This document shows, piece after piece, positions 19,392-36,100 of a stretch of DNA of 46,809 bases. Under the pieces are notes generated by a model, which worked only from the letters and a program-made list of their open reading frames with translations, searched no databases and was not told where the DNA came from. The translations under genes and the position numbers were made by a program. Origin of the DNA: Pseudomonadota bacterium (GTDB lineage: Bacteria > Desulfobacterota > Desulfobulbia > Desulfobulbales > JAGXFP01); NCBI GenBank assembly GCA_030673265.1, contig DAOVJK010000001.1, forward strand, positions 1-46,809. Reading direction: 5' to 3'. Numbering within the stretch: the stretch's first letter is position 1; the number at the start of each line of letters is the position of its first letter.

Positions 19392-21608
19392 ATGGATAAT
19401 ATCTTTCAACTTGATGAATCGGCCCGGCAGCTTTTTAGCGAGTTTGACGGTATAGACAGCTCTGATCGAGCCAGTGAAGACATCTCGACCGGGATATTAA
19501 AGTCTCTTGATCAAGAAGAAAAGGCCCTTGATTATTATCGTCTGTTGCTGGCCCAGGCAACTTGTCTTTTTGCCGAAGTACTCGTCAACAGCAGTTTTGT
19601 CGCTCTCAAGGAAGAGAATGACGAAAAGATCAGACTGTTTGTTAGTTTCCTGAAGAGAATCTCTAAAGCTCCTAAATTTGACGGCAAGATATTCTGTCGC
19701 CTTCGCGGACAGCAGTGTCCATCTAATAAAGGTGGTTCGGAGACATATGATTATGAGCTGTCATTTGGAAATTTTCTTTTAGATTTTCAAGTTGCGCAGG
19801 TAATTGAGGAAAGGGAAGGCAAAAAAGGTAAGGCCATTTACGTAAAGCTGATGGAGGCATTTAAGGCCATGAGCGTTATGGACATCTTCAATTTCTCCAT
19901 AGATTTGGGAGCTGGTACGGAAGAAGAGTACTTAAAGGTAGAAAACACCTTCCGACATCTGGCTCATTTTTATGCAATGAAGGATGGTGATGACCGTGTC
20001 GTAGTCCAAGACGAATATGACCAGCCTAGCATTAACTTAACGCTCCTTTCAACCACCAATAATGTAAATACCACTGCACTCCAGAATCTGGTTAAGAAAA
20101 TCAAGCCCATGATCCTGGATCCAAATGCTGGTAATAAATTAAACCGTTTTGCTACAGTTTACGACGTAATCCTGGCTTCTAAAAATTATCGCGAACAGCT
20201 CAAAAAAATGCCGATCGAGGTTAATAATGTTCAGTGGCTAACCCAAAAACTGCAAACTAATCCTGAACAGGCTGCAAAAGCTGTCCAGGTATCTCGTTTA
20301 GTTTTGGCCAAATATGGCAGCAATCCCAAAATGGCATCTGAGGTGATGTCAAGTATTAATAGTGAAGGATACAGCGATATTCGCACTGATGTTATGGGCA
20401 AACGCCTGTCTCTGGCAACAAATTTCATCAACCTTACCGAGGAAAGTACCGATAAAGTAGTCCTGCAGAATGATGCCCTTGAAAACATAGAGCACGGTCT
20501 GGAGCAATTGTCAGACGAAATATTTGACAATATTTCCATTGAGAACGACGAAGTCAGCAGTGTTGATGAAGAGGGCCAAAAAACCAAATGGTCTATTCAT
20601 GAAAAGATCCTTGGCTTGCTAAGTTTTTTCAAGCAAAGGTCCACTACCAAGAAAAAGATCAAGGACATCACAAACAAAGATGTCAAATTTGATGCTGAAG
20701 ATTATTCTGTTATTGCCAAAAATTTCAAAATCACAGAACTGGAAGCCTCTCATCTCATAGATTTATTGCGAGCATGCTTTGATGATAATGGTCGTTTCCG
20801 GCGGATCTTTTTTGAAAAAAACATCTCAGAATTTGTTCAATATGAGAGCAAAGTTTTTGAATTTCTATGGCATTATCTAAAAGAGCTGGCAACGAGACAG
20901 GATCGGGTCTCATTTCTTAACGCCTTGCAACTCCTTGTTGCCAAACTAAAAAGACCACAGGATGCGCTTAAGATCCTTACCACTGACATCTTTAATCGTT
21001 CGTCGGCTATAAACTTTTCCGATAGAAATGGTCTTATCCTGGCCACAATTCTTCTCCGTTATAAAAACAAGGAGGAACGCAGTAACGTTGAGCAGACTCC
21101 AGAGGAAGTTCTCCTCGTTCGTAAAGGGCTTAATGAGGAGATGGTTAAGGTAGTTGTGGATTTCTTAGAGAAAAACCAGGAATATGTTATTCAAAAAGTC
21201 AGGAATATCACGAGGCTTCTGTTTGCATCATCCACCCAAGAAACTGATAAAGATGGGGAGATGCAACCACGTTTTCTGTTATATTTGCTGCGTGAATTGA
21301 CTGTTTTTCTCGCCTTGATCGGCAGTGATTCAAGTCGAGCGATCATCTATGGTCTGGTTAAGGAATTTGGCAACCCAGATTCATCGTACTATCAGAATAT
21401 GAAAGACAAAGAAAATCTGCGCTACTCATTACTGCTTTTACAAGTCGCAACCCGGGCCATAAAGAGATTTAATGACCCGCAATCTGATGCCATATTGGAT
21501 GAAATCGCTCAAAATGCTGGCTCGTTTGTTAACTTATTTGACGACCCAACCCATCTTCAGAACGTAGAAAGAGTGATGTCGAGAATTAACAATAAATATG
21601 GGGCTTAG
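19392..21608 (+). CDS. large hypothetical protein (738 aa), no recognisable domain
   Basis: Long uninterrupted ORF that is hydrophilic and Lys/Glu/Leu-rich. I could find no signal peptide, P-loop or catalytic motif. It looks more AT-rich than its flanks by eye (not computed). Confidence 0.7.
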   Translation: MDNIFQLDESARQLFSEFDGIDSSDRASEDISTGILKSLDQEEKALDYYRLLLAQATCLFAEVLVNSSFVALKEENDEKIRLFVSFLKRISKAPKFDGKIFCRLRGQQCPSNKGGSETYDYELSFGNFLLDFQVAQVIEEREGKKGKAIYVKLMEAFKAMSVMDIFNFSIDLGAGTEEEYLKVENTFRHLAHFYAMKDGDDRVVVQDEYDQPSINLTLLSTTNNVNTTALQNLVKKIKPMILDPNAGNKLNRFATVYDVILASKNYREQLKKMPIEVNNVQWLTQKLQTNPEQAAKAVQVSRLVLAKYGSNPKMASEVMSSINSEGYSDIRTDVMGKRLSLATNFINLTEESTDKVVLQNDALENIEHGLEQLSDEIFDNISIENDEVSSVDEEGQKTKWSIHEKILGLLSFFKQRSTTKKKIKDITNKDVKFDAEDYSVIAKNFKITELEASHLIDLLRACFDDNGRFRRIFFEKNISEFVQYESKVFEFLWHYLKELATRQDRVSFLNALQLLVAKLKRPQDALKILTTDIFNRSSAINFSDRNGLILATILLRYKNKEERSNVEQTPEEVLLVRKGLNEEMVKVVVDFLEKNQEYVIQKVRNITRLLFASSTQETDKDGEMQPRFLLYLLRELTVFLALIGSDSSRAIIYGLVKEFGNPDSSYYQNMKDKENLRYSLLLLQVATRAIKRFNDPQSDAILDEIAQNAGSFVNLFDDPTHLQNVERVMSRINNKYGA

Positions 21609-22275: not shown

Positions 22276-23118
22276 CTAAAAATGAATATGCTTAACCATA
22301 CTAATTATAATTGAAACTACCAACATTGAGCCGGTAACAACTACAAAGATGCCAAATACCGTTGACAACCTTTTCAGCCAGGCTTCAGGAGCGCGGCATT
22401 GCGTCAACTTGTCGAGATCGCCTGAGGCCATCAGTTGATCATACTCTCTAGGCCGTTCATGCTTCAGCTCATCAACGGTAATCGATCCAACAAAAATCAC
22501 CGGGTCTAAAGGAAATTTGTCTGGACGCAAATGGGTGTTATAGAAATGAATAGTGAAAATAAAGCCTGACGCAAGCAACGCTTCATCACTGTGAATAATC
22601 GTGGCAATGTTTAACCCCCATCCCGGTAGGAACTTCGAAAAAATCTCGGGAAACCATAGGGCCAGACCAGAGGAACCGATTACTGCAATACCCCAGAATA
22701 CCGCCATGAAATCGAACTTCTCCCAGTAGGTCCAATGCCCGTAATATGGGCGTGGTCCGCCAAAAAACCATTTAAACGTGGCAATCATCTCCTTTAAATC
22801 ATTTAAATTCGGCACGAGCCCTTCAGCATCGAAGATAAAGCCGAGTAATGATTTTCCCGATTCCTTCCATTTTGTATACAGTAATATCATGGTCAGGAAA
22901 AAATAGAAGAATGTAACAATGGCAAAGAAACGGTGTAAAGCCCCAAGGACCGTGAAACCGCCGGTCATGAAAGCAATCCATTGCGCCCAGTCTTCCATGG
23001 CAAATTTGAGAGCCATTCCGGTTACCGCCAAGGTAAGAAAACTAACGATAACTAAAAGATGGGTCAAGCGTTGAAAAACTGAAAATCTTTCTATATAGAG
23101 TGGTTCGCATTTATGCAT
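22276..23118 (-). CDS. membrane b-type cytochrome (FdnI/HydC-like, Ni_hydr_CYTB-type)
   Basis: Polytopic ORF with the typical start of this family (RFSVFQRLTHLLVIVSF) and conserved His in separate helices (LHRFFAIV, IIHSDEAL, HFYNTH). I prefer the ATG at 23118 (MHKCEP) because AAGGAAGGA lies 9 nt upstream. Confidence 0.75.
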   Translation of the reverse strand: MHKCEPLYIERFSVFQRLTHLLVIVSFLTLAVTGMALKFAMEDWAQWIAFMTGGFTVLGALHRFFAIVTFFYFFLTMILLYTKWKESGKSLLGFIFDAEGLVPNLNDLKEMIATFKWFFGGPRPYYGHWTYWEKFDFMAVFWGIAVIGSSGLALWFPEIFSKFLPGWGLNIATIIHSDEALLASGFIFTIHFYNTHLRPDKFPLDPVIFVGSITVDELKHERPREYDQLMASGDLDKLTQCRAPEAWLKRLSTVFGIFVVVTGSMLVVSIIISMVKHIHF

Positions 23119-23181
23119 TTTGGTCGATCCTTCCTTATGGGTTCTTAATCTGATCAATCCGAAATTTAATTAGTCCTTGTC

Positions 23182-24423
23182 TTATTTCTTGGCCGTAATT
23201 TCTTTAAATTTTTCAATTAGTGCTCGAGGTACCCATAGAATGGTGTGCAAGCCAAAGAAAGCAAAGGTGCCGACCAGCAGTCCGGTCATAGCCCAGAAAG
23301 TATAGAAAAGATATGGATATTTTTCGCGGTCGTTATGGGTCGCATGGGTAAGATAAGTGGTAAAGCTTTGATTGGCATTTGGGTGACACTTGGCACAGGT
23401 CTCAACAATATTTACTGCATTAATCATAGATTTTTCACTTTTTATCGGCATGATATTATGTGAGCCGTGGCAGTCAGAACATTTGGCCGTTTTCTCTCCG
23501 CCCCAGAGCATGGAAGCCCGGCCATGATAAGTCTCTAAATAGGTCTCCGACTCATGTGCATGGCAGTTACCGCATTGATCGGCAATGATCAGGCGGAAAT
23601 CCTTGCGGTCCACCTGGGCTATGGTATGTGAATTATGGCAATCTATACAGATGGGCCGCTTCTTGTCGGTAGTGGAATCGGGATTACCGTGCACCGATAG
23701 TTTGAACTGATCCACAATCCCGACATGACACTGGTTGCATGTATCAACAATATTATCCCGGTTTACTGTCGAGTCCGGGTTACTGGCCTTCTGGACGTTA
23801 TGGGCCGTATGGCAGCTGGTACAAACGGCAGTGACAATCAAGCCATCTACAAAAAGTCCCTTCCCGTGGATGGACATTGAATAATTTTCAATAATATTAT
23901 GCTGGTTCAGATCATGGCTCTTTGTCATTTCCGTGCCTTCACGATGACAGCGACCACAGGTGAAGGGGATGTTCAAAGGGTAGGTCGAGGCCTCTTTATT
24001 GGTCGGCGGCAGGATGTTATGCTTGGTGTGGCAGTCTTTACACCTTGGGGCCATTTTGTCATTATGATCTGAAATAGAAAGTCCGTGCGCACTGTTTTGG
24101 TATATTTCACCAATTTCGTCATGACAATTTTCACAGTTGACGGGGGACATGGGGAAAGGATGTTCATCGCCTGCCACATCGGCCTCTTCATGACAAGAGA
24201 CGCAACCATTGTCCGCATGGATGGTCCCTTTAAAAATTTCAATGTCCATAAAAAGGCTGACTGTTTCACCATTCTTTTCGGTGGTCAAATCTTCATCGCT
24301 GTGGCACTCAATACATTCATCGTTGGTCAGAGCCAATGAATTGCCTGGCAGAAGAAAAGAGACTGCGAATAATGCAAAAAAGAACAGTACGATTCTTGAA
24401 AGATATTTCGTGATATTGTCCAT
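23182..24423 (-). CDS. membrane-anchored multihaem c-type cytochrome (11 CxxCH motifs)
   Basis: CxxCH motifs counted by eye: CIECH, CVSCH, CENCH, CKDCH, CGRCH, CTSCH, CNQCH, CIDCH, CGNCH, CSDCH, CAKCH. There is an N-terminal signal/anchor and a C-terminal hydrophobic helix (FWAMTGLLVGTFAFFGL). I prefer the ATG at 24423 (MDNITKY) with an AAGAGGGG RBS. Confidence 0.9.
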   Translation of the reverse strand: MDNITKYLSRIVLFFFALFAVSFLLPGNSLALTNDECIECHSDEDLTTEKNGETVSLFMDIEIFKGTIHADNGCVSCHEEADVAGDEHPFPMSPVNCENCHDEIGEIYQNSAHGLSISDHNDKMAPRCKDCHTKHNILPPTNKEASTYPLNIPFTCGRCHREGTEMTKSHDLNQHNIIENYSMSIHGKGLFVDGLIVTAVCTSCHTAHNVQKASNPDSTVNRDNIVDTCNQCHVGIVDQFKLSVHGNPDSTTDKKRPICIDCHNSHTIAQVDRKDFRLIIADQCGNCHAHESETYLETYHGRASMLWGGEKTAKCSDCHGSHNIMPIKSEKSMINAVNIVETCAKCHPNANQSFTTYLTHATHNDREKYPYLFYTFWAMTGLLVGTFAFFGLHTILWVPRALIEKFKEITAKK

Positions 24424-24560
24424 AAACCCCTCTTGTTTTCGATAAAACATGAATTCTGGATAACGGTTCGGAAAAGTCTTATATCTCTTGATATAATAAA
24501 TGAATGCCCATTCAGTGAAGTACTTTTGCTAAATAATCAATAAATTGTCAATTAAAAAAA

Positions 24561-24591
24561 GCGGGTAGTTAAATTATCTACCCACTTTTTT
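24561..24591 (-). terminator. probable terminator of the 7-gene minus-strand operon
   Basis: 8-bp stem with one mismatch (gcgggtag / ctacccac). On the minus strand a run of seven T follows (the complement of aaaaaaa at 24554-24560). It lies about 60 nt beyond the stop at 24651. Confidence 0.45.
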
Positions 24592-24650: not shown

Positions 24651-25688
24651 TCAGTTTTCGCCGCCAGTGATCATATAGAGGAGATAATGATACGAGGAAA
24701 GGACGGCAAGGATGGTCAACAGGATTAGAGACATATCGACCGCTATCTTACGGTAGTGTCTGACCGGAGTAACCAGATCAGAACGGCGGCCCAAAACTTC
24801 AGTCAGCGCCGTTGAAATCCCGAAAAAAGTCCCGCAGATCAAAGTACAATAGATCGCCAGCCCGATGTAACTGTATTCCGGCTTAATAATACAGAAAGGG
24901 CAGCGATGAAAAGGCATGGCATAGATATATGATGAGATAACCGAGGTGATCACCGCCAGGGCCAAGCCAAAAAACCATAACCAGCCCGTCGCATAAAGAA
25001 AAGAGAGGCTGCTCTGCACCCTTTTCCCCGACAATTTCAATCTCGGTATCCGGTTATTCATCAGCAGGGCAAGACCGAGCAGAACCGCGATGGTTCCGTA
25101 ATAGAGCCAAAGCATGATGGTTTGGGGCAGGCTGCCCAACAGATTGCCCCCCTCCCCCGCCGCATCACTGAACACCACAGCACAGCAAGAGGTTATTATG
25201 TCAGGATCAAGATTGGCGATATAAAGGGTCTGGAAAATAATATCAGCCAGGATGAAGGGGATCAGGAGCAACAGGTAGAGATATTTAATTCTGACCAGAG
25301 GGTAGACCTCGGAGCGGATATCTATTTGATGTAGGAGTATCCAGAAACCGTAGAGGAAAAAACCAGCCAGTTTGAGATAGAGGGTCGGCAAACCGAATTC
25401 ATTGGCCAACAGGGAACCGGTAGCGCACATCGCCCCGGCTATCACCTGACTGTAGCTGTCTGCCGCCAGGATAAAAAGCAGGAGGCTTAATCCTTGGACT
25501 GCCAAGGCAAATTCGATCAGGGTCGAAGCCAGCCAGGTCTCGTTTTCGAGACTGATCTGGAGATTGCTGTCGCTGGCCTGGTTCCAGTAGCGAAGAACCC
25601 GCACCCCGGTCCGGGCCGCGTTGGCTATCAGAAAGAGGACGACAATACTGCACAGAACCAGGCTGAGACTCCAGGCGCTAAGAAACAT
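24651..25688 (-). CDS. polytopic membrane protein with conserved-looking Cys pairs, function unknown
   Basis: 345-aa ORF with roughly 8-10 hydrophobic helices and the motifs ITSCCAVVF and FHRCPFCIIKPEY. It overlaps the upstream ABC ATPase gene by 11 nt. Confidence 0.65.
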   Translation of the reverse strand: MFLSAWSLSLVLCSIVVLFLIANAARTGVRVLRYWNQASDSNLQISLENETWLASTLIEFALAVQGLSLLLFILAADSYSQVIAGAMCATGSLLANEFGLPTLYLKLAGFFLYGFWILLHQIDIRSEVYPLVRIKYLYLLLLIPFILADIIFQTLYIANLDPDIITSCCAVVFSDAAGEGGNLLGSLPQTIMLWLYYGTIAVLLGLALLMNNRIPRLKLSGKRVQSSLSFLYATGWLWFFGLALAVITSVISSYIYAMPFHRCPFCIIKPEYSYIGLAIYCTLICGTFFGISTALTEVLGRRSDLVTPVRHYRKIAVDMSLILLTILAVLSSYHYLLYMITGGEN

Positions 25689-26355
25689 CTACCCTGCCAT
25701 CCGTGACGTCTATTATTCGGTCTATTTCGGGCTTTTCGGTGACCAGCGGATCGTGGGAGGCAATAATAATGGTCTTGCCGGTTTTTTTCAGATCGACCAT
25801 TATCTGCAAAAACTCCTTACTGAGCTTTGTGTCTAGATGGGCGGTGGGTTCATCTGCGAGGATGATGGGCTGATCGTTGATCAGGGCGCGGGCAATCGCC
25901 ACCCTCTGCAATTCGCCGCCTGAGATCTGCCCGGCTGGGAAGTTTTGCCGATGACTGATACCGAGCCGCTCGATTAAAACCTTGGCCCGCATGCGTCTTT
26001 CTTCGGGTGAAACCCCGAGAGGTAAAAGCGGTAAAGAGATATTCTCCTGCACGGTCAGGTCGGGCAGGATATTGAATTGCTGGAAGATAAAGCCGATGGT
26101 CTGGCGGCGATGGATAGTCATGAACCGGTCCGGTAGGCGGGACAGCTGTTTGCCGGCCACGGTGGCCCGGCCACTGGTCGGCGGCAATATGCAACCAATT
26201 ATCGATAACAGGGTTGACTTACCGGAACCACTGGCCCCGCGCAGACAGACCATACTGTTCGCCTCTATAACCAGATCGACATCATAAAGGGCCTGAACCT
26301 CGTTGGGCTGGCCTTGATTATATATTTTATTGACGGACTCCAGTTCGATCATCAT
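25678..26355 (-). CDS. ABC transporter ATP-binding protein (MacB/LolD-like)
   Basis: Walker A GASGSGKST, signature ISGGELQRVAIARA and Walker B IILADEPT. The start is probably at MMIELESVNKIY (26355) rather than the ORF-track 26388. Confidence 0.85.
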   Translation of the reverse strand: MMIELESVNKIYNQGQPNEVQALYDVDLVIEANSMVCLRGASGSGKSTLLSIIGCILPPTSGRATVAGKQLSRLPDRFMTIHRRQTIGFIFQQFNILPDLTVQENISLPLLPLGVSPEERRMRAKVLIERLGISHRQNFPAGQISGGELQRVAIARALINDQPIILADEPTAHLDTKLSKEFLQIMVDLKKTGKTIIIASHDPLVTEKPEIDRIIDVTDGRVDVS

Positions 26356-26436
26356 AGCTTGTCTTATGGTCTCGTAAAAAGTACCCAAAGGGCTTTGTAG
26401 TATAGAGATGGCTTAGTAGCTATCTGCGAAGCCATC

Positions 26437-27621
26437 TTATTTTACCGCCGCATCTGGAGATATCGTTGAGCACCGCCAGGCCGGTATTACCGTCGCTGCC
26501 AAGTACGGCAGCACCGACAAGGTGAAAATTAACAGTACATCCCCCGCTGCGAAGACCGGCAGGATTTTTAACGATGGATGGATCACCGACCAGCCCAACA
26601 ACACCGGTCTAAACAATGACCCCTCCAGAAATAAAACATGAAAATATGCGGCCGTGCAGCCGATTAGAAAAGCCAGCCCGGCCACCGTCAAGCTTTCCCA
26701 GTAACGCAGGGTCAGAATATCGGTGGTCTGCCAGCCCAGCACCTTAAGGATCCCGATCTCCCTTTTTTCTTCAACGGATAGGCCGGATGCCTTATCCCAG
26801 GCGAGAATAGCAAAGGCGGCCAAAGCGGCCAGCAGACAGATTGAGGCAAAACCACTGCGCCAACCGAAAACGACCTTGTACGTTTTGAGGATTTGCGGCC
26901 GGGTCAGCACCCTGGTGTCCGGCAGTCTGGCGGCGATCTTTTTGGCAATGGTGCTAATTTCGTTGGGGTTGGTTACATAAACAAGGAGATCAGTTGCAAG
27001 ATTGTCTGGAATGGCGAATAAGTCACGGGCATCATCAAGACTGGTAACCAATAGATCGCCAGTCAACAGGTTGGTGCTCTCGGCAAAAATACCGGTTATC
27101 CGGAGGGTCTTCAGGGACAGATCCGGCCTAAACAACGAGAAGGTGCGGCGTCCGGCCAGGTTCATATTGGCTGCCACTTCCCGACCCAGAGCAGCCCCAC
27201 CCGGTTCTGCATCCGGGTAACTGCCATCAATAACCATCTCCAGTCGTTGGCCTTCGGGCATGGCATTTCGCTCGACACCCATGACCGTGTAATTGGCCCC
27301 GGAGGTTTCATCAAAATAATAACCCCATATCCTGGGCACGGCAGCTCTGATCCCGAAGACACCGTCTAAACGGTTGAGATAAGAAAGGGGGATAGATTCC
27401 TGGCGACCAGCGGACATTTTTTGAACGACAATCTCGGGAGTTTTTGCCAGCATGGTCTCGGCGATACTGGTAAGGCTGCTGGTCAGGATCTGAAAAGAGG
27501 CGACCAGAAAGATAACACCGGCGAACACCGTTATGATCCCCAGATTCTTCATTTTGCGCCGCCACAGGCTAGACAGAGCATAATCAAGAAGATTCAGATG
27601 TTTTTCGAAGGCTGGGCTCAT
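26437..27621 (-). CDS. ABC transporter permease, FtsX/MacB type
   Basis: The topology is one N-terminal TM, a roughly 200-aa periplasmic segment and three C-terminal TMs. I place the start at MSPAFEK (27621), 5 nt after the upstream stop. Confidence 0.8.
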   Translation of the reverse strand: MSPAFEKHLNLLDYALSSLWRRKMKNLGIITVFAGVIFLVASFQILTSSLTSIAETMLAKTPEIVVQKMSAGRQESIPLSYLNRLDGVFGIRAAVPRIWGYYFDETSGANYTVMGVERNAMPEGQRLEMVIDGSYPDAEPGGAALGREVAANMNLAGRRTFSLFRPDLSLKTLRITGIFAESTNLLTGDLLVTSLDDARDLFAIPDNLATDLLVYVTNPNEISTIAKKIAARLPDTRVLTRPQILKTYKVVFGWRSGFASICLLAALAAFAILAWDKASGLSVEEKREIGILKVLGWQTTDILTLRYWESLTVAGLAFLIGCTAAYFHVLFLEGSLFRPVLLGWSVIHPSLKILPVFAAGDVLLIFTLSVLPYLAATVIPAWRCSTISPDAAVK

Positions 27622-27626
27622 AAATA

Positions 27627-27911
27627 TTAATCCTGCGGGGGGGCCCAAAAAGAACCGGTTGGGAAATGCTCCATGGCCCCAAGATGGTCCATGAACGGGG
27701 CGATGGGATCGGAAACAGCAGGATGCCTGGTATAACGAGCCTCGGTCGCCAGACAGAGATCGGTCAAACCCAGCCCAGCGGTGACTATGTCATTTAGGTG
27801 AGCGGCTGGGCGCTGCACGGTTTCCTGTTGAAAACGGACATGGGCATATAGCGCTGTATCAAGGATAAGCAGGAAGAGTATTATTAAAACTAAGCTGTGG
27901 GTAGGACGCAT
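27627..27911 (-). CDS. small N-terminally anchored/secreted hypothetical protein (94 aa)
   Basis: N-terminal hydrophobic helix LVLIILFLLILDTALYA. It is packed 7 nt after nosL and 5 nt before the permease gene, which supports it being real. Confidence 0.5.
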   Translation of the reverse strand: MRPTHSLVLIILFLLILDTALYAHVRFQQETVQRPAAHLNDIVTAGLGLTDLCLATEARYTRHPAVSDPIAPFMDHLGAMEHFPTGSFWAPPQD

Positions 27912-27918
27912 TAGACCC

Positions 27919-28437
27919 CTATTTTTCCATGCTCTTCATACGGTTGCCAACTCGGAGCCGCTCAATAATTTCAACGGTTATCTCGTCAAAGACCAAAATC
28001 TGCTGGCCGTGGTGATCAGTCAAGAACGATTCGGCGGCGGTTTTACTTGAGAAAGGAATCAGCTCATGGCCCATAGGCCCGTGAACATCGCTGCCAACAA
28101 CAAAGAATGCCTGTCGAGCATCCAGCCATTTAAGGGAATAATAATCTTTGGCCCAGATCTCGCTTATCTTAGCCTGAGCTTGGCCGTTGTATGCGGCAGG
28201 ATTATGATAATAGGCCATCATATCTTTGACCCCATCAAAGCTGAAAACAATAGAATCGTCATAACGTATCTGGGTTATCCAGACATCGTATTTAGCCACA
28301 AACATCCCGCAGACCGGGCAGCGGGTGTCGGGCTTGACTTTGTCAAGAGGGGCGGCTGCCGCCGTTGATATTAAAAGAAATGGTGTGAAGACAAGGAGAA
28401 AGAGTGCGAAGCTCTTGTTTATCAATAAAGATTTCAC
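27919..28437 (-). CDS. nosL: NosL-family protein (copper-chaperone-like accessory protein)
   Basis: 172-aa ORF with a signal peptide, then the characteristic RCPVCGMFVAKYDVW...FDGVKDMMAYY...GSDVHGPMGHELIPF pattern of the NosL family (PF05573-type). Confidence 0.8.
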   Translation of the reverse strand: MKSLLINKSFALFLLVFTPFLLISTAAAAPLDKVKPDTRCPVCGMFVAKYDVWITQIRYDDSIVFSFDGVKDMMAYYHNPAAYNGQAQAKISEIWAKDYYSLKWLDARQAFFVVGSDVHGPMGHELIPFSSKTAAESFLTDHHGQQILVFDEITVEIIERLRVGNRMKSMEK

Positions 28438-28498
28438 TTATTATACTCCGTTATATTGATTTTATGTGCGATTCAGCACGAATAATCTTAGTCAGATA

Positions 28499-28999
28499 TC
28501 ACTTGTTCAGCCATTCGCCACCCAGGATCTCATCAAGCTCTGGCTCGGTTACTCCTCCCAGAATGGCACCTTTAATCATATGGCTGGAATTGAGGATTAT
28601 CGTCTGGGGTTCTACCTTTACATTAAACAATTTAGATATTTTAAGACCATAATCTATAGCAACCGGGAAAGGAATATTAAGATCAGCAGCGAACTTTTTT
28701 ACCTGGGCTTGATCTGTTGTGGTCGTAATATAGAGAATCATAAGCCCCTGATCTTTATGATTATTGTAATAATCATTAAAAATCGAAGTGTCGGCCTTGC
28801 AGAATTTACAATCGGTAATAAAAAAGCGGATCACAACCGGTTGGTTTTGCAGCGCTGACAGCTGGACTTTGTTGCCGGTCAGGTCTTCGAGCAGAAAATC
28901 GGGGGCCGGGTCACCTATCTTCAACTTGGTTGGGGCTCCCGAAGAGCAACCACTCAAAGCAAAAAGGATAATCAGAACTGTTACCGTGATTTTTTTCAT
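28499..28999 (-). CDS. TlpA/ResA-like thiol:disulfide oxidoreductase lipoprotein (thioredoxin fold)
   Basis: Lipobox LSGC at the N-terminus, a redoxin pattern GDPAPDFLLEDLTGNKV and the active-site CKFC. It overlaps the upstream ATPase gene by 4 nt. Confidence 0.8.
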   Translation of the reverse strand: MKKITVTVLIILFALSGCSSGAPTKLKIGDPAPDFLLEDLTGNKVQLSALQNQPVVIRFFITDCKFCKADTSIFNDYYNNHKDQGLMILYITTTTDQAQVKKFAADLNIPFPVAIDYGLKISKLFNVKVEPQTIILNSSHMIKGAILGGVTEPELDEILGGEWLNK

Positions 29000-29709
29000 G
29001 CCGACTCGTTTTTAGCGGTTGTCTCGGAAAGTTGCCCGCTTTTCATCAAAAATGTTCTGGGGTTATGTTGGGTCGAAACAAGGCTGCTGTTATGGGTAAC
29101 AACAAGGAAAGTCGTTTTTTGCTCGGTATTGTAATGCCGAAAAATATCAAGAATCTCCCTTTCGGTTTCTTCATCAAGATCCCCAGTTGGTTCATCAGCA
29201 AGAATAATGCTGGGGCGATTTATAAAGGCTCGAGCAATGGCTACCCGTCGCTGCTGACCGCCGGAAAGATGGGCTGGAAAAGCGTTCTCCTTATCTGCCA
29301 AACCAACCTGGTCCAGGAGTTCTCTGGCCAACGGGATGTTTTCTGCGGGGTTGGTGCCGGCATCAGCAAAAGATAATGGCAAGAGGACATTTTCAATGGC
29401 GGTCAGAGTCGGAATCAAGCTGCCGAACTGAAAAATAAAACCTATCGTCTGGTTGCGCATGATCGCAAGTTGCGCCTCGCTCTGCTGCCAACAATCGACA
29501 TCATTTATAATGATGCTTCCCGCATCAGGACGGGCCAAGCCGCCAATTAAACTGAGAAGTGTCGTCTTCCCAGAACCAGAGTGTCCGAGAATAGCGACAA
29601 AAGCTCCGGCCTCTACAGAAAAGGAAGCATTATCAACGGCCCGCAGGTCTTGGCCTTCCTGGTGGTAAGTCTTAACGAGATTATTACATTTAATTATCAT
29701 TATAGCCAC
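28996..29709 (-). CDS. ABC transporter ATP-binding protein (MacB/LolD-like), first gene of the minus-strand operon
   Basis: Walker A GHSGSGKTT, signature LSGGQQRRVAIARA and Walker B IILADEPTGDLD. Confidence 0.85.
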   Translation of the reverse strand: MAIMIIKCNNLVKTYHQEGQDLRAVDNASFSVEAGAFVAILGHSGSGKTTLLSLIGGLARPDAGSIIINDVDCWQQSEAQLAIMRNQTIGFIFQFGSLIPTLTAIENVLLPLSFADAGTNPAENIPLARELLDQVGLADKENAFPAHLSGGQQRRVAIARAFINRPSIILADEPTGDLDEETEREILDIFRHYNTEQKTTFLVVTHNSSLVSTQHNPRTFLMKSGQLSETTAKNESA

Positions 29710-30091
29710 TTAACAATATAGATTTAATCAGCAAAAAGGACCGCTGGTTTTTAGAATTTTTTAGATTTTAAGTCTAAGAATAGTTTCAGAAATTCACCAT
29801 GAACAAATCATTAACAATTACTAGCTGATAGAATCGATTTGTGCAAGCTGCTTTTCTGTGACAAAACAGGATGTGGTTTAGCAACATCAAACAAGAATCT
29901 ATTCCCTAACAGTTGCATTTTTTTAGTGACACGATGTGGTATTTACTCTAAAATATCATTTATTGTTTTTCATTAAACTTTCTTTTCAAGATTAAGATCT
30001 TGAAATAGCTTCTTTTTCTACATCCAGCAAATTATCAATTATTTCCTTTTTTCACGGAATGCATAAAAAAAACAATTTTACCTTTTTTTTC

Positions 30092-30108
30092 ATACCACAG
30101 TGTGGTAT
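30092..30108. promoter_or_regulatory. perfect palindrome ATACCACA-g-TGTGGTAT, a candidate operator overlapping an extended -10-like element upstream of the 30250 gene
   Basis: The 8+1+8 palindrome is read directly from the sequence. Its right half is TGTGgTATAT. It sits about 140 nt upstream of the start codon in a 520-bp AT-rich divergent intergenic region. A further half-site TGTGGTAT lies at 29935-29942. Confidence 0.4.
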
Positions 30109-30249
30109 ATCACTTCACAAGCTTTATGAATCAGGGGTTGTTTCTTAAAGCAAGATTACTGTTTTAAGTCCGCAGTGGGTCGGCAACAGGGGAACGAAGA
30201 CTATTCGTTATCCTGTTACTGAACAATTTAATTGAAGAAAGGAGGAAGC

Positions 30250-31422
30250 ATGAAGATTTCAAAAAGGTTATTGGTTGGCTCTATGCTGACAGGCGGTATC
30301 GCCTTAGGTGTGTTTTGTCTCAACATGCCGGTAGATGTATCCGCCATGGGTAACAAACCTGCCGCAGAAAAAGCTCCGGCAGCCGCCGGCGCCACCTACG
30401 ACGCTACTTTATATGTAGCCGGCATGGGCGGCCACTTCGCCAAAGCCGTCGCCACCATCGATCCCTCCGCTGACCAGCCGATCAAGATCAGCAGCCTGAC
30501 CAAGGTCGATATCGGTACCCGTCCGACCCATCCGACTCATGATGCTCGGATCGACAACAACGACCGCAACACCATGTTCTGGTCGACCTACAAGATCGAC
30601 AAGGAAGCCGGCGGCGTTCATGTTGGTAAAACCGACCTGAGAACCGGTGAGATCATCCAGGATGTGGTCGTTGATGTACCGGCCAAAGCAACCAACACCA
30701 AATCAATGTACTGCGCTTCCGGTCAGTCAAAGGATCATTACATTCCGATCACTATGACCAGCAAGGGCTACATCGACGTATTCACCAAGTCAGATCTGAA
30801 GCGTGTTCAGCGGATATTCCTGGAAGGCACCGATGCGGATATCGGCGCTCCTTATAAGTTCCTGCACGGTAATACTAATACAGCAATGACCAAATTGATT
30901 ATTATTGCCAATATCGCCGACAAGGACCACGGTAAGACCACCGGTAAAGTTGAGCTTGTTGAATTGGATCTTAACGAGTTTACCAAGGGTAATGTCAAAG
31001 TTCTGAATCGGAACACTATTGCCGGTACCCCGAAGAGTATTACCTTCCGGGCCTACTACTCGCCTGATGGCTCCATGATTGCCGCTTCCGGTGGTGACGT
31101 CATGTTCCTGATCGACGCCAAAACCCTTAAGGTCATCGACACTGAGCCCGTCAGCAGCATCGATCACAATCACGATGCGATTTTCACCCCGGACGGCAAG
31201 TACATCATCGCCACTTCCCGCTGGAAGCAGGTCACAGGCGAATGTGAAAACCCCAAAGCTCCTAAAGCCGGCGAATTCACCATGGACGGCGTTCTCAAGC
31301 TTTATGATGTAGAGAAAAAACGATTCATTGGCGAACACACCTCTGCCTGCCTTACCTGTCACGATGAGGAAGGTGTAGAAGAGCACGCCATCCTTTGCGG
31401 TCTGGATGCCAACTTCAAGTAG
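30250..31422 (+). CDS. secreted His-rich, beta-rich (propeller-like?) protein with a C-terminal CxxCH haem-c motif; function unknown
   Basis: The ATG at 30250 (MKISKRLL) is preceded by AAAGGAGGA. A Sec-type signal ends in VSA-MG. About 320 residues show short beta-strand-like repeats and 9-10 His (GGHF, THPTHD, VHVG, DHY, LHG, DHG, DHNHD). The C-terminus reads SACLTCHDEEGVEEH, and a strong terminator follows. Confidence 0.8.
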   Translation: MKISKRLLVGSMLTGGIALGVFCLNMPVDVSAMGNKPAAEKAPAAAGATYDATLYVAGMGGHFAKAVATIDPSADQPIKISSLTKVDIGTRPTHPTHDARIDNNDRNTMFWSTYKIDKEAGGVHVGKTDLRTGEIIQDVVVDVPAKATNTKSMYCASGQSKDHYIPITMTSKGYIDVFTKSDLKRVQRIFLEGTDADIGAPYKFLHGNTNTAMTKLIIIANIADKDHGKTTGKVELVELDLNEFTKGNVKVLNRNTIAGTPKSITFRAYYSPDGSMIAASGGDVMFLIDAKTLKVIDTEPVSSIDHNHDAIFTPDGKYIIATSRWKQVTGECENPKAPKAGEFTMDGVLKLYDVEKKRFIGEHTSACLTCHDEEGVEEHAILCGLDANFK

Positions 31423-31462
31423 GAATTTAACACTTAACCTACTCTGAAATATGTGCTAAAAA

Positions 31463-31497
31463 GGGAGGGAGCTGAAATCAGTTCCCTCCCTTTTTTT
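31463..31497 (+). terminator. rho-independent terminator after the 30250-31422 gene
   Basis: Stem gggagggagctg / cagttccctccc with one G-U pair and a 4-nt loop, followed by seven T. Confidence 0.7.
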
Positions 31498-31559
31498 ATA
31501 CTTATTACATGATAAAGCTGAGTTGAGCCGCGCGTTGGCTCAAACGAAACTTATGCCCT

Positions 31560-31571
31560 TGTGGTATAAAT
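31560..31571 (+). promoter_or_regulatory. candidate extended -10 promoter TGTGgTATAAAT for the permease gene
   Basis: A further copy of TGTGGTAT, here giving TGn+TATAAA, about 30 nt upstream of the ATG at 31602. Confidence 0.35.
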
Positions 31572-31601
31572 ACTGATTAACCAGAACCTAATAAGCTAAC
31601 T

Positions 31602-32798
31602 ATGACAAAAGAATCTCTGAAGATATATACCCTTGGCACCATTGCCTGGAAAAGTGTCACCCGAAAAATATTCAGAAATATCATCTTGGTTCTGGCAGTA
31701 GCCATGCTGGTCTCCCTACTGGTCTTCGCTCTCCTCTTCAATCGGGCCATTAAAGAGGATATCAAGGAAGCCACTCAAAAACTCGGGGCCGACATTGTGC
31801 TTGTCCCGGTTGATGCCGTTGAACTGGCCGAGGAATTCATCCTGGAAAGCAATGAAAAGACTTTCTATATGGACGAATTTGTCTATGAATCGATGAAAGA
31901 ACTGCCCATCGTTGAGCAGGCCACTTTTCATATTTACCTCGACACCCTTGAGTCGGAGTGCTGCAGCATCCTCGAAGGCCAGGTTGTGGCCATCGACCAG
32001 GCTACCGATTTTGTGGTCAAGCCCTGGCTGGATACCGACAGGGAATTAAAGGCAGGAGAAGTGTACATTGGCAGTTACGTCCACGAGTTCCTCGGCTTGA
32101 TCAATACCGCCACTCTTTTCGGAAAAGACATCAATGTGGTCGGTCATCTAAGGGAAACCGGCACCGGCCTTGATCTTGGCATATTCATGCGGAAAGAGGA
32201 TCTGGATGCGACTACCACTGAAGCAACCGGCCAGCGCAAAGAGAACGAAATCTCCATTGTTTTCCTCAAACTGAAAGAGGGAGTAGATCTTGACGATGCC
32301 GTCGCCATGATAAGGAACGTAAATCCTTCGGTCGGCCTGATGACCAGGGGCAGTATCGGCATAGATGTTAGATCAACCTTGAACGACATCATGCGGATAT
32401 TCACCCTAACCATCCTGATAGCCTCCATTCTGTCAGTATTACTAGCCTGGTCCACTTTTACGGCCATGACCAATGAGAGAAAAAGAGAGGTGGGTATCCT
32501 GCAGGCCATCGGCGCCCGTCGCAGTCACATTATCAAAATGTTCCTCGGTGAAGCCGCAATCATCAGTCTGCTTGGTGGAATTATTGGGGTGTTTGCCGGG
32601 CACCTGCTGCTTAATTACCTGGCCGCCGACTTCAATCTGCTCAGTCGCTTGGGAGATATATCCATAACCTCTCCCGTCAGTATATTATTAAGTTTCTTGG
32701 CGATAGTCATGGGTGGTGGCGCCTGTCTCCTTGGCGCCGTCCTACCAGTCTATCGTCTAGCCAGACTGGAACCATTGTTGGCACTGAAAGAGGACTAG
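31602..32798 (+). CDS. ABC transporter permease, FtsX/MacB type (second copy)
   Basis: 398-aa ORF with one N-terminal TM, a roughly 230-aa periplasmic segment and three C-terminal TMs. It has the conserved RKREVGILQAIGA pattern of FtsX-family permeases. Confidence 0.8.
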   Translation: MTKESLKIYTLGTIAWKSVTRKIFRNIILVLAVAMLVSLLVFALLFNRAIKEDIKEATQKLGADIVLVPVDAVELAEEFILESNEKTFYMDEFVYESMKELPIVEQATFHIYLDTLESECCSILEGQVVAIDQATDFVVKPWLDTDRELKAGEVYIGSYVHEFLGLINTATLFGKDINVVGHLRETGTGLDLGIFMRKEDLDATTTEATGQRKENEISIVFLKLKEGVDLDDAVAMIRNVNPSVGLMTRGSIGIDVRSTLNDIMRIFTLTILIASILSVLLAWSTFTAMTNERKREVGILQAIGARRSHIIKMFLGEAAIISLLGGIIGVFAGHLLLNYLAADFNLLSRLGDISITSPVSILLSFLAIVMGGGACLLGAVLPVYRLARLEPLLALKED

Positions 32799-32893: not shown

Positions 32894-34288
32894 TTATTTT
32901 TTGACTTTTATATCGTAAGCTTTGATCTTATTTAAAAGCGACGGGAAACTCAATTCCAGCATTTGCGCCGCGCGGGAGCGATTGCCACCAGTTGCTGTCA
33001 ATGCCCGGCTAATGAGATTCTTTTCCCAGATCCTTTTGGCTTTTTTAAGTGAAAAACCGGTCTGTTCATCAAAACAGATTGAACCATTATCAAGCTGTTC
33101 GGCATGGCCTGTCAGGACTTCAATTCCCAATAGCTCATCGTTGCTTAAAACCATCGCCCTTTCGATAATATTTTCCAGTTCACGGACATTTCCTGGCCAT
33201 TGCTGCCCGATAAGTCCGGCCATCGCCTTGGCAGCAACCCCTTTTACCGATAAATCCAGTTTGTCGTTGAAGCGCTCAATGAAATAATGGCAAAGCGGCG
33301 GAATATCTTCGGGATGGTCCCTGAGTGGGGGCATTTTTATGGGCATAACATTCAGCCGGTAGAACAGATCCTCGCGAAAAAGCCCTTGCTTGATCGCATC
33401 CTCCAGGTTTTTTGAAGTAGCGGCGACAACTCTGACATCTACCTTGCGAGTCACAGTTGAGCCAACCGGTCGGATTTCATTTTCCTGGAGAACCCGCAGG
33501 AGTTTAACTTGGAGTGACAAAGGCAGTTCTCCAATCTCATCAAGAAAGATGGTGCCGCCATCCGCTTCTTCAAAAAGCCCCTTATGGATCCGGTCGGCGC
33601 CGGTAAAAGCCCCTTTGACATGACCGAATAATTCACTCTCGAGAAGTGCTTCTGGAATACTGCCGCAATTTACCGGGATCAGGGGCTGGTCTCGGCGGGG
33701 GCTGGCAAAATGAATGCCCCTGGCAACCAGTTCCTTGCCGGTTCCTGACTCCCCGGTGATCAAGACCGTCGTGTTATAACGAGCAACCTTGGTTGCCAGT
33801 TCAAAAACTTGCTTAAGAGCCTGACTTTTGCCGACCATCCCGGCAAAATTACTCTCACCTTCCAAATAGCGTAACTGGTCACGCAACCGTCTGTTTTCCC
33901 GACGCAGACTTTCTCGCTCTTCGGCCTTTCTTAAAGCCATGACAACTTCATCCACCTTGAACGGCTTGGAGATGAAATCATAGGCCCCGCAGTTCATGGC
34001 CTCCAGGGCCAAATCGATAGTCCCGTAGGCCGACATCATGATCACCGTCGCGTCACCCCGACAGTCAACAGAGGCTCGGAGAAAATCCATGCCATTCATG
34101 TTGGGCATCTTGACATCACAAAGAATAAAATCGAATTCATTTTCTCCCAATAACTCAATGGCTTTCAAACCATCTGCGGCCGTAACAACCGTATAACCGG
34201 TGCCTTCGGTCATAATTTGCAACATATGGCGCATATTCTGTTCGTCGTCAATAATCAGTAACTTGCGAATCGTTTGTTTTTTTGACAT
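32894..34288 (-). CDS. sigma-54-dependent response regulator (NtrC family)
   Basis: Receiver domain (LLIIDDE; [10 protein letters not shown]). The AAA+ sigma-54 interaction domain shows [14 protein letters not shown] and FLDEIG. A C-terminal HTH is present. The likely start is the ATG at 34288 (MSKKQ). Confidence 0.9.
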
Positions 34289-34303
34289 TTTCCCAACCAA
34301 CAA

Positions 34304-35866
34304 TCATCTCTTGGTATTTTCAGGCATGGCTGAAAGCGGTAAAGTAATGGTAATGGTAGTGCCTTCACTGTCGCTTGACGCCTTGACCCTGCCTGCCATA
34401 TTATCAACAATAGTAAAACAGATCGATAACCCCAGACCCGTACCCTCACCCGGCTCTTTGGTTGTGTAGAAAGGATCAAAGATATTCTCAAGGTTGCCGG
34501 ACGCAATGCCTGGGCCATTATCAATAAATTGAATTTGAATAAACTCCGCCCTATCCTTTTTAAGATTAACGGTTCTGATCGTAATTATACCTTCTTCCTG
34601 GCAATCATCACTGGCGCTTTTAATGGCATCAGCGGCGTTCATCAATAGATTAAGAAAAACCTGATTGAGTTGACTGCTTGTCCCGACTACAAAATTATCT
34701 TTGGCCGCATATTCGCTGGCAATCGTAATCCCCGCCATCATCGGTTGAACGGTGCAAATTTCCACCACTTCTTTAATCGCTTCATGGACAGAAACTGCAC
34801 ATTGCTGTTCATCCGGCGGCTGCCGGGCAAAATCAAGCAGTTGTCTGATAATAGTGTTGATACGATGCACCTCTATTTCAGCCCGAACGATGAAGTCTTT
34901 CTTTTGTTCATCAGAGACAGAGGCTTTCTGTAAGAGATCGAGGTAGCCGATAATGATCCCGATAGGATTACCAATTTCATGGGCAATACCGGCCGAAAGA
35001 CGTCCGACTGATGCCAGTTTTTCGGACCTAATCATTTCCTGTTGGGTTTTTCGCAACTTGAGGTTGGCTTCTTTAAGATCGGCTATGGTTTCCTGTAATC
35101 GACTTCTATCCCGATTTATCCGAGCCAGCATTTTATTAAGGGTAAGTGAGAGTCGGTTGAATTCACCATCTTTTGTTTCCGGCAGAAAAGTAAATTCATC
35201 GTCATCGCGGAACTCTTCGGCAGTATTTACCAGACGATTGATAGGTTTAAGCAGCCTTCGGTAAAGCTGATAAAACCCCAACATTACCAAGGCTAGCAGG
35301 TTAAATATAAAGTATACAAAAAACATGCGCTGGCTGTTGCGAAGTGATTGATAAATGTTATCTAAATCAAGGGCAACGGCGATGGCCCCGACAACTTTTC
35401 CCGCAGCAATAATTGGCCGCGAGACCAACATGTTTTTTCGGTCTGGCCATAAAATGCCCCTGGTTGTACCCGCAAATGAGGACGATGATTTACCTGATTC
35501 AATGGACTGGCGCGCATCCCTGGCAAGGATTTCGATAGAATCACAATCCGGACCCGCGCTAAAGACATTGTCTCCCCCGCTGTTTATAACCACGAGGCAG
35601 TTGGCCGAACTCTCATCCATGGTCATCGTTAATTGCGCAGGAGACAATCCGGAATCAGATAAGCCTGCAATAAGGACCGGGCCGGAGACAGCAAGCAGTG
35701 AATTCCCGGTTTCAAGGCGAACTTTAAGCAATTGCTGGCGCGCCGCACCGACCATAACCAGATCAACCAATAGCATTGCCGCTGCCAGAATAAGCAGCAA
35801 ATTCAGGATAATGCTTATTTTAAGTCCCTTTGGATACATAAACCGAACCGGAATAATGAGCGACAA
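34304..35866 (-). CDS. sensor histidine kinase (2 TM, HAMP, HisKA, HATPase_c)
   Basis: H-box AGIAHEIGNPIG, N-box LLMNAADA and G-boxes DNGPGI and GTGLGLS. It sits directly upstream of the NtrC-type regulator gene. Confidence 0.85.
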   Translation of the reverse strand: MSLIIPVRFMYPKGLKISIILNLLLILAAAMLLVDLVMVGAARQQLLKVRLETGNSLLAVSGPVLIAGLSDSGLSPAQLTMTMDESSANCLVVINSGGDNVFSAGPDCDSIEILARDARQSIESGKSSSSFAGTTRGILWPDRKNMLVSRPIIAAGKVVGAIAVALDLDNIYQSLRNSQRMFFVYFIFNLLALVMLGFYQLYRRLLKPINRLVNTAEEFRDDDEFTFLPETKDGEFNRLSLTLNKMLARINRDRSRLQETIADLKEANLKLRKTQQEMIRSEKLASVGRLSAGIAHEIGNPIGIIIGYLDLLQKASVSDEQKKDFIVRAEIEVHRINTIIRQLLDFARQPPDEQQCAVSVHEAIKEVVEICTVQPMMAGITIASEYAAKDNFVVGTSSQLNQVFLNLLMNAADAIKSASDDCQEEGIITIRTVNLKKDRAEFIQIQFIDNGPGIASGNLENIFDPFYTTKEPGEGTGLGLSICFTIVDNMAGRVKASSDSEGTTITITLPLSAMPENTKR

Positions 35867-36034: not shown

Positions 36035-36100
36035 GACTATGCCGGTTCACGAAGTAAAATGATTCACTCGTAACTTTGATCATGATAACGGAGAATAGTG

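Follow-up and report, generated by a model that had tools for sequence, protein, structure and literature searches.

The stretch of DNA considered here (the window) is one entire NCBI contig of 46.8 kb (DAOVJK010000001.1, 46,809 nucleotides) from a member of the Desulfobulbales. At positions 24651–32798 it carries nine genes arranged around the gene of a secreted protein of about 390 amino acids (aa), which we call the propeller protein. We hold it to be somewhat better than an even chance that this locus encodes a previously undescribed periplasmic haem/copper propeller oxidoreductase together with its own maturation kit assisted by type VII ABC systems. The strongest genomic argument for copper is that two unrelated copper chaperones, NosL and PCuAC, alternate at one locus. 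Copper is preferred as the metal because the NosL protein of the locus keeps its ligands, because PCuAC replaces NosL in one lineage and because the ABC pair beside the propeller gene is homologous to the pair found in loci of thiocyanate dehydrogenase (TcDH). A role in thiol handling is proposed because the TlpA-like lipoprotein occurs fused to NosL and because invariant or nearly invariant Cys motifs are present in the TlpA-like protein, in the permease FtsX_B and in the membrane protein memC. The homology with the TcDH-locus ABC pair, which was absent from the initial annotation of this DNA, is the closest precedent. As a general kind, propeller metalloenzymes that have a copper-assembly cluster of their own are already known; the enzyme family, memC, the small protein p94 and the combination of type VII ABC systems with NosL are new.

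Conservation of the nine-gene locus

The initial annotation made its reading depend on a gene order conserved in other genomes, and such conservation was found. Relatives were sought in one genome per species and the window proteins were mapped onto the best 80 loci, the synteny being counted in 51 loci (species-level genomes) with enough flanking DNA. All nine genes stand in identical order and orientation in 39 of the 51, and the same order is kept in four metagenome or metagenome-assembled genome (MAG) loci with differing outer neighbours. The nine-gene cluster is a real conserved unit. The most constant neighbour of the propeller gene is FtsX_B, which adjoins it in 47 of the 51 loci. Reduced forms occur as NosL–TlpA–ATPase1 diverging from propeller–FtsX_B (four loci), as ATPase1 diverging from propeller–FtsX_B (two loci, Desulfogranum mediterraneum among them) and as propeller–FtsX_B–ATPase (two loci); from these it follows that the core consists of the propeller protein and one type VII ABC pair, FtsX_B and ATPase1. 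In one locus (L001) the TlpA-like protein and NosL are fused as a single 337-aa protein. In a MAG labelled as Nitrospira (L084) a PCuAC gene (PF04314, E 1.3e-21) lies directly upstream of propeller–FtsX–ATPase, at the place of NosL, and the propeller protein encoded there retains every conserved residue.

The propeller family is widespread (more than 1000 protein clusters), its members being encoded in 172 species-representative genomes, mostly of Desulfobulbales from sediments, groundwater and sulfidic waters. Isolates with a relative include D. mediterraneum DSM 13871, Hydrosulfovibrio ferrireducens CB1MN and strains B35 and M19, and these cultured carriers make the prediction directly testable. 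No propeller homologue was found in a collection of 72,556 plasmids.

In the window the seven packed minus-strand genes of the initial annotation were recovered from 29709 down to 24651, with three overlapping junctions and a widest gap of 61 nt. Read directly in the sequence, a terminator-like hairpin 3' of memC (about 24554–24585, minus strand; GTGGGTAG / CTACCCGC, an 8-bp stem with a 9-nt loop and a run of eight T) closes this operon, as had been claimed; the automatic terminator scan, which allowed loops of at most 8 nt, passed over it. The other two genes, encoding the propeller protein and FtsX_B, lie on the plus strand.

The secreted propeller protein

The propeller gene (30250–31422, plus strand) has an open reading frame (ORF) that opens at 30232. 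The TTG at 30232 would give 396 aa and the ATG at 30250 gives 390 aa; the ATG, preceded by AAGGAGGA, is the more likely start. The product is a Sec-type secreted protein with the predicted C-terminal CxxCH, present as CLTCH at residues 373–377. Its earlier description as His-rich was overstated, the 12 His making up about 3% of the residues; more telling is their conservation, 7 being invariant in alignment A1 of close relatives. At E ≤ 1e-3 the protein has 1076 homologues, of which the 120 that were listed come mostly from Desulfobulbales and bear no functional name; no curated family in Pfam or NCBIfam matches it.

Alignment A1 and a profile search of 1.84 billion representatives give the residues conserved across the wider family as H68, H103-D104, C161, H212, H314-D315, C373-x-x-C376-H377 and C389. 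H130 is conserved less strictly, being mostly kept in the wider family, and C161 and C389 are lost jointly in two divergent members. All 120 close homologues have the CxxCH motif (C373-L-T-C376-H377), as do almost all of the distant members whose sequences extend over that region. The occurrence of CxxCH within a Sec-exported protein is the mark of a c-type cytochrome, and by this signature the C-terminal motif most likely carries a c-type haem.

The AlphaFold2 model, built from a 31-sequence alignment, is a confident all-beta structure (pLDDT 84.7, pTM 0.82) with 23 strands, a bridging segment at 102–108 and a single short helix that bears the CxxCH. We infer from it six blades of four strands each, with the C-terminal strand closing the propeller. 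In this arrangement H103/D104, C161, H212, R273, H314/D315 and C389 would stand at the starts of the innermost strands and ring the hub on one face, with H68 and H130 near the hub pocket. The CxxCH helix, following the last outer strand, would lie on the same face, and the layout would thus be that of a hub metal site with an electron-transfer haem nearby.

Eight distant members of the family (P0121, P0125, P0126, P0129, P0130, P0139, P0185 and P0192) carry extra domains or long unassigned N-terminal regions, the fused domains being fn3, Ig-like (Big_2) and caspase (Peptidase_C14); most of the fused members retain the CxxCH and the hub residues. A second propeller paralogue (L067, 8635–11092) occurs outside any such cluster in the MAG that also contains locus L012, and its divergent neighbour encodes a 322-aa protein with a weak, below cut-off match to the VKOR family (E 5.4e-5).

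NosL and the other accessory proteins

The NosL gene (27919–28437, minus strand) encodes a genuine member of its family (PF05573, E 3.6e-32, 111.9 bits against a cut-off of 24), so that the ORF which the initial annotation had called NosL-like passes the profile hidden Markov model on which that assignment was made to hang. The protein has a signal peptide ending in STAAAAP and is secreted, with no lipobox Cys. Its only Cys residues, C40 and C43, lie within C40-P-V-C43-G-M45. In alignment A3, which sets the protein beside three NosL proteins from nos clusters, neither M45 nor M122 varies. The Cu(I) ligands of the Shewanella NosL are Cys62, Met64 and Met145 (PMC8457098); C43, M45 and M122 are their counterparts, and the ligands are therefore retained. 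Identity with NosL proteins of plasmid nos clusters is 27–38%. As had been noted from the sequence, the usual partners of nosL are missing: nosZ, nosD, nosF, nosY and nosR were not found on the contig, whose remaining genes are housekeeping ones, and no nosZ, nosD, nosF or nosY accompanies NosL in the related loci compared. One clade (L005/L020 at 1–4313, also L019, L023 and L025) has an ArsR-type regulator and an ArsP permease before the cluster and carries there, besides, a second, divergent NosL paralogue (34–38% identical) and a different kinase/regulator pair.

The gene upstream of NosL (28499–28999, minus strand) encodes a TlpA/ResA-like lipoprotein of the AhpC-TSA/Redoxin type (PF00578 and PF08534) which combines a thioredoxin fold, a CxxC motif and a lipid anchor. 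The lipobox LSGC18 and the motif C64-K-F-C67 are its characteristic elements, and C18, C64 and C67 are invariant in 57 orthologues. The best NCBIfam match is ResA with 95.6 bits, below the cut-off of 170; by this score the protein is a relative of ResA and not ResA itself.

This match bears on an explanation that we regard as quite improbable, according to which the propeller protein contains haem only (a cytochrome or haem enzyme) or is a non-redox Zn/Ca hydrolase of the lactonase type, the TlpA-like protein assisting haem attachment as a reductase in the manner of ResA and NosL having nothing to do with the cofactor. ResA is indeed the best-matching family of the thioredoxin-like protein, the CxxCH is the sole textbook cofactor motif of the propeller protein, and the weak matches that are all it gives in sequence and profile searches of the PDB are to propellers that are cofactor-less or hydrolases (hydrazine synthase beta and the lactonase 6-phosphogluconolactonase). 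However, the ResA score lies far under its cut-off, the conserved His and Cys set exceeds the needs of one haem, two unrelated copper chaperones alternate at the same position of the locus and the ABC pair is held in common with the copper enzyme TcDH.

Two further proteins have no match in Pfam or NCBIfam. The first, p94 (27627–27911, minus strand), is a 94-aa N-terminally anchored periplasmic protein that is always encoded in the interval between NosL and FtsX_A; its TEARYTRHP motif, M74 and H82 are conserved in ≥95% of 49 orthologues. The second, memC (24651–25688, minus strand), is a 345-aa polytopic Cys-bearing membrane protein with 598 homologues, none of them with a functional name from any source. 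Its AlphaFold2 model (pLDDT 81.6) has eight predicted transmembrane helices and no fold match in the PDB (best E 0.23). In the 22-sequence alignment A2 of memC, C88, C168-C169 and H261-x-C263-P-F-C266 are invariant, with C266 present in ≥90%. By the positive-inside rule the loops with the conserved Cys and His would face the periplasm. Our guess, from these motifs and from the weak VKOR match beside the paralogous propeller, is that memC acts as a thiol conduit of the CcdA, DsbB or VKOR kind. Given the Cys motifs of the TlpA-like protein, FtsX_B and memC, thiol chemistry on the outer side of the membrane seems to be an inherent part of the system; it may supply reducing power, form a disulfide or bind Cu(I).

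The profile searches foreseen in the initial annotation thus returned NosL, redoxin, ABC and FtsX as expected, with MacB_PCD in FtsX_A, and gave no match for p94, memC and the propeller protein.

ABC pairs and the link to thiocyanate dehydrogenase

The locus encodes two permeases, FtsX_B (31602–32798, plus strand; PF02687, E 1.6e-23) and FtsX_A (26437–27648, minus strand; PF02687 and the MacB_PCD domain PF12704, both over their cut-offs), the latter probably starting at the ATG at 27621, its orthologues being 394–398 aa long. In FtsX_A the PF12704 match scores 29.5 bits against a cut-off of 27; in FtsX_B there is none, and the orthologues of FtsX_B give weak ones. The partner of FtsX_B is ATPase1 (28996–29709, minus strand), a LolD-like ABC ATPase and member of the minimal core, and that of FtsX_A is ATPase2 (25678–26388, minus strand; PF00005, E 2.4e-31), a MacB/FtsE/LolD-type ABC ATPase; for both the top NCBIfam matches are MacB, FtsE and LolD. 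With an FtsX C-terminal domain in both permeases and LolD/FtsE/MacB-type ATPases beside them, the two pairs are type VII ABC systems. FtsX_B carries a C120-C121 pair that is invariant in 73 orthologues and that we place in its periplasmic domain.

When FtsX_B was compared by tblastn with the 72,556 plasmids, five records were obtained. In one of them, the Methylocella tundrae plasmid NZ_LR536451.1 (L091, 4938–9666), the gene of a 614-aa "hypothetical protein" is followed by an FtsX permease and then an ABC ATPase. The 614-aa protein is a TcDH homologue (E 1e-157 to PDB 8yu5 and 2.4e-151 to 5f75). The permease next to it is homologous to residues 1–313 of FtsX_B, aligned over 333 residues with E 8e-21, and barely matches FtsX_A; on our reading of the sequences the alignment spans the periplasmic domain. 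The ATPase has 47% identity with ATPase1 and 34% with ATPase2. In the Thioalkalivibrio operons the TcDH gene is followed by two pairs of a permease with four transmembrane helices and an ATPase, a single-transmembrane hypothetical protein and a sigma-54 two-component system, and all genes of the operon are induced together on thiocyanate (PMC5328954; PMC5744179); these operons were compared by their published layout, and the sequence comparison is that with the Methylocella locus. By the homologous ABC pair and the shared operon parts, the accessory core of the locus is one that it has in common with the copper propeller enzyme TcDH, although no relationship between the two enzymes is detectable.

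In the Methylocella locus, which belongs to a methanotroph plasmid, the ATPase gene is followed by that of a 293-aa protein of no family. Two other records, from a Treponema saccharophilum plasmid (L092, 5774–7844) and from Fusobacterium vincentii (L093, 6953–9763), have a relative of FtsX_B preceded by a small DUF4418 membrane protein; the Fusobacterium locus also has an FMN_bind protein and the Treponema locus continues with cysteine-synthesis genes. Members of the FtsX_B-type subfamily seem to have small redox or membrane proteins of various kinds as partners.

It is known of type VII ABC systems that they work with a periplasmic enzyme and draw hydrophobic compounds out of the inner membrane, as YbbAP does with the hydrolase TesA (PMC12646458). 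It is therefore conceivable, although we think it rather unlikely, that the ABC systems of the locus hand a substrate to the propeller protein (a hydrophobic or membrane-partitioned compound such as elemental sulfur or polysulfide) or clear zero-valent sulfur as its product, in the manner of YbbAP-TesA, and do not serve maturation. TcDH makes zero-valent sulfur and has a homologous ABC pair, the vicinal Cys-Cys motifs of FtsX_B and memC could carry persulfide and the hosts are sulfur-cycling Desulfobulbales. This explanation, however, does not account for the TlpA-type reductase in the cluster, nor for the chaperone for copper, be it NosL or PCuAC; the Cys-Cys pair is absent from the TcDH-linked permease, and no gene of a sulfur carrier (TusA, DsrE, rhodanese) is found in the cluster.

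Another alternative is envelope homeostasis or detoxification of copper or another thiophilic metal, in which the propeller protein would sequester or oxidise Cu(I), NosL and p94 would shuttle the metal and MacB-type pumps would expel it. Pumps of the MacB family are exporters (PMC5985334), the thiolate-rich motifs are placed on the periplasmic side, and some loci have metal-related neighbours: a MerR regulator (L003/L004), a MerB-like gene (L001) and ArsR/ArsP with the second NosL (L005). These neighbours, however, are not conserved, and neither a membrane-fusion protein nor an outer-membrane factor, which efflux of the MacAB-TolC type requires, is encoded in the window cluster or in loci L001–L006. 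Moreover, the invariant CxxCH and the hub-like His, Asp and Cys residues resemble a catalytic redox site and not a sink, and the homologous ABC pair serves TcDH, an enzyme of energy metabolism induced by its substrate. We consider metal homeostasis to be unlikely.

Relation to known systems

The propeller protein lies outside the described families, in agreement with the initial annotation: it is not NosZ of clades I–III, not TcDH and not a member of any curated family. The lactonase-type NosZ of clade III, L-NosZ, was reportedly described by He et al. in Nature in 2025, as papers citing that work relate. According to a preprint, an L-NosZ has 400–900 aa, the CuA motif CX2FCX3HXEM and the CuZ motifs DXHH/GXHH, PHG, GPLH and EPH (bioRxiv 10.64898/2026.07.10.737647). 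The identity of the propeller protein as NosZ or L-NosZ was rejected, the protein having neither a CuA nor a CuZ motif, a length of 390–396 aa and no profile similarity; the CuA motif was found in none of the 270 family members sampled, and NosZ is absent from the PDB profile matches of the propeller protein and from its Foldseek top 50. Direct homology with TcDH was not detectable either. Short motifs that look alike in the two proteins (GVHV, H-D at strand starts and xHxxxF[ST]PDG) are not significant.

The TcDH clusters resemble the locus in that the gene of a periplasmic beta-propeller metalloenzyme is directly followed by an FtsX-type permease with four transmembrane helices and an ABC ATPase. 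In Thioalkalivibrio the likeness extends to two such pairs, a single-transmembrane hypothetical protein and a sigma-54 two-component system, and in halophile loci to a thioredoxin-like gene and a sigma-54 activator. In contrast to the locus propeller, for which six blades are inferred and which is exported by Sec and has a C-terminal CxxCH, TcDH has seven blades, is exported by Tat and lacks the motif; its loci as described have CopCD or Cus instead of NosL, and no equivalent of memC was found in them.

With the NosZ/NosDFYL (clades I and II) and L-NosZ systems the locus would share a propeller with a His-lined hub metal site and an adjacent electron-entry cofactor, and with the NosZ systems also NosL as Cu(I) chaperone and a periplasmic assembly step driven by an ABC ATPase. 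For L-NosZ the hosts likewise include Desulfobacterota and Nitrospirota and the loci lack canonical nos accessory genes and have cytochromes and transporters nearby. Unlike the NosZ systems, the locus has a propeller protein with no cupredoxin/CuA domain and no CuZ His motifs, ABC systems of type VII (FtsX/MacB) in place of the ABC-2 system NosFY, and no NosD.

In Bradyrhizobium the TlpA/ScoI/CoxB pathway reduces Cys ligands before copper is inserted. This CuA toolkit (TlpA, ScoI, PCuAC) is similar to the locus in combining an anchored TlpA-type reductase with a periplasmic Cu(I) chaperone, which in one lineage is PCuAC itself; it differs in that the locus has neither Sco nor a CoxB-like target, the target being a propeller with a CxxCH and two separate conserved Cys. 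FtsEX-EnvC, LolCDE, MacAB-TolC and YbbAP-TesA have in common with it the FtsX fold, a LolD/FtsE/MacB-like ATPase and a periplasmic partner, whereas the locus encodes no membrane-fusion protein or TolC, no EnvC-like coiled coil and no LolA, its partner is a predicted redox metalloprotein and its FtsX_B carries the invariant Cys-Cys. In cytochrome cd1 nitrite reductase, a c-type haem feeds a catalytic centre with haem d1 in the hub of an eight-bladed beta-propeller. This general design, from haem c to a hub catalytic centre, is like that proposed here; cytochrome cd1, however, has a full cytochrome c domain and haem d1 in place of a protein-ligated metal, whereas the locus propeller has a short CxxCH tail, and no similarity between the two was seen in the PDB sequence and profile searches.

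A search of the literature available gave no paper that combines NosL with Desulfobulbales taxa, or with FtsX and a propeller in such a context, or that reports such a cluster, and a recent survey of sulfur disproportionation mentions none of the genes of this cluster.

Proposed function

In the favoured reading, a haem/copper oxidoreductase with its own maturation kit, the C-terminal haem would pass electrons to or from the hub metal, the TlpA/ResA-like lipoprotein would keep the CxxCH and/or the hub cysteines reduced and NosL (PCuAC in one lineage) would deliver Cu(I). ATPase1 and FtsX_B, with its periplasmic Cys-Cys, would load or service the propeller protein by ATP-driven mechanotransmission, and we propose the same loading or servicing role for the homologous ABC pair in TcDH loci. 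Metal or reducing power may be fed in at the membrane by ATPase2 and FtsX_A, by the small His/Met protein p94 and by memC, which is rich in Cys. The proposal of a maturation locus made in the initial annotation is in this respect upheld by the conserved unit, the genuine NosL, the PCuAC swap and the TlpA-NosL fusion; its other half, the supply of electrons by the locus, was not supported.

Several points weigh against this reading. That the metal is copper, that the haem is attached, the geometry of the hub, the direction of electron transfer and the class of the substrate are all inferred, and the broader metal-binding class that includes the NosL family makes another thiophilic metal possible. 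The hub assignment and the blade count were taken solely from the secondary-structure string of the model. The structure prediction suggested at the outset did yield a confident all-beta model, but the fold matches were generic: Foldseek against the PDB returned WD40/YVTN propellers only, with TM-scores of 0.38–0.47. Comparison with NosZ by hmmsearch gave nothing above the inclusion threshold and by hhalign a probability of 2.7%, with a NosZ profile that is thin (three sequences, clade I only, the Bacillus record having no nosZ near its NosL and thus leaving the profile without clade II). Against the Methylocella TcDH homologue hhalign gave 3%, and the propeller protein has no twin-arginine motif. 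The TcDH-linked permease does not have the Cys-Cys pair of FtsX_B, and FtsX_B-like permeases also occur with unrelated partners (DUF4418, FMN_bind) in Fusobacterium and Treponema. Finally, no sigma-54 site was found in the divergent spacer, and the link to the NtrC-type regulator is therefore one of adjacency only.

An inorganic compound of sulfur or nitrogen is the probable substrate. Sulfur is suggested by the hosts and by the link to TcDH; the NosL link and the quinol-linked modules that lie nearby in some lineages (cytochrome b with an 11-haem cytochrome in the window, an NrfD-like protein in Desulfogranum) make nitrogen oxides possible. A more far-reaching proposal, which we put forward only tentatively and with some doubt, is that the propeller protein founds a new class of periplasmic haem-copper propeller oxidoreductases for an unassigned anaerobic step of sulfur or nitrogen cycling in Desulfobulbales and some Nitrospirota, its cofactor being installed by a type VII ABC system in a so far unrecognised mode of assembly that TcDH would share. 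Such a step might be, for example, the reduction of NO or N2O in the absence of NosZ, or an oxidation of sulfide or of zero-valent sulfur that is coupled to disproportionation.

The copper propeller enzymes NosZ, L-NosZ and TcDH control fluxes of N2O and sulfur compounds, and each new one has shifted the counts of sinks and sources, while the enzymology of sulfide oxidation and sulfur disproportionation in these organisms is still incomplete. The locus offers a handle on the supply of copper to Sec-exported metalloenzymes in a sulfidic periplasm, and it ties type VII ABC systems to metalloenzyme function through the module shared with TcDH.

Regulation and neighbouring genes

The two transcription units diverge from an AT-rich control region (29710–30249) with three related inverted repeats. 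The initial estimate of about 520 bp for this spacer proved accurate: counted to the TTG it is 522 bp long, counted to the ATG 540 bp, and its GC content is 31.9% against 47.3% for the contig. The repeats lie at 29866–29877, 29929–29940 and 30092–30110, the last of them being the best (ATACCACAGTGTGGTAT). The pattern ACCAC-N1-5-GTGGT is present in the spacer of 27 of 68 non-identical related loci (L001, L007, L008, L011, L015, L017, L063 and L076–L085 are among the loci with the repeat), against a chance expectation of about 0.15. The repeat is a possible operator at which a regulator would bind and resembles NtrC-type half-sites (CACCA...TGGTG). The best match to a sigma-54 -24/-12 promoter in the spacer of the window has four mismatches, and no consistent site was found across 73 loci. 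A G+C-rich hairpin of 17 bp, followed by a T-run, stands in the interval from the propeller gene to FtsX_B (31458–31495, plus strand). It is likely to act as a partial terminator or stabiliser that gives a high ratio of enzyme to accessory protein; such an arrangement, with read-through into the accessory genes, is typical of structural genes that are strongly expressed.

The flanks are as the initial annotation described them, with a cytochrome b (PF01292) and a cytochrome c with 11 CxxCH motifs on one side (22276–24450, minus strand) and an NtrC-type sigma-54 response regulator with a HAMP histidine kinase, a possible regulator of the locus, on the other (32894–35866, minus strand). Neither belongs to the core; both are lineage-specific neighbours. 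The cytochrome pair, which had been thought to supply the electrons, stands beside the cluster in 3 of the 51 loci and is separated from it by the terminator-like hairpin as a transcription unit of its own, and it is no more than a candidate redox partner. The two-component system, which had been noted as bracketing the locus, has an adjacent orthologue in 6 of the 51, other loci carrying different sensor and regulator genes. In D. mediterraneum (L063, 4121–8727) the reduced cluster comes after the genes of a response-regulator-PAS sigma-54 activator, of an NrfD-like membrane protein and of two proteins, 123 and 304 aa long, that belong to no family; the NrfD-like protein may be an alternative quinol-linked partner.

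Beyond the two-component system of the window lie an FmdE-family gene and a MoCF_biosynth (molybdopterin-binding) gene (36098–37746), a pair that is also found near the cluster in L001 (16797–18420) and L003 (16728–18344) and not in other loci. Upstream of the cytochrome genes a 738-aa ORF with no Pfam match (19392–21608) lies in a stretch of low GC content (~40%), and at 18129–18941 a 270-aa member of the C_GCAxxG_C_C family of "putative redox-active protein" is encoded.

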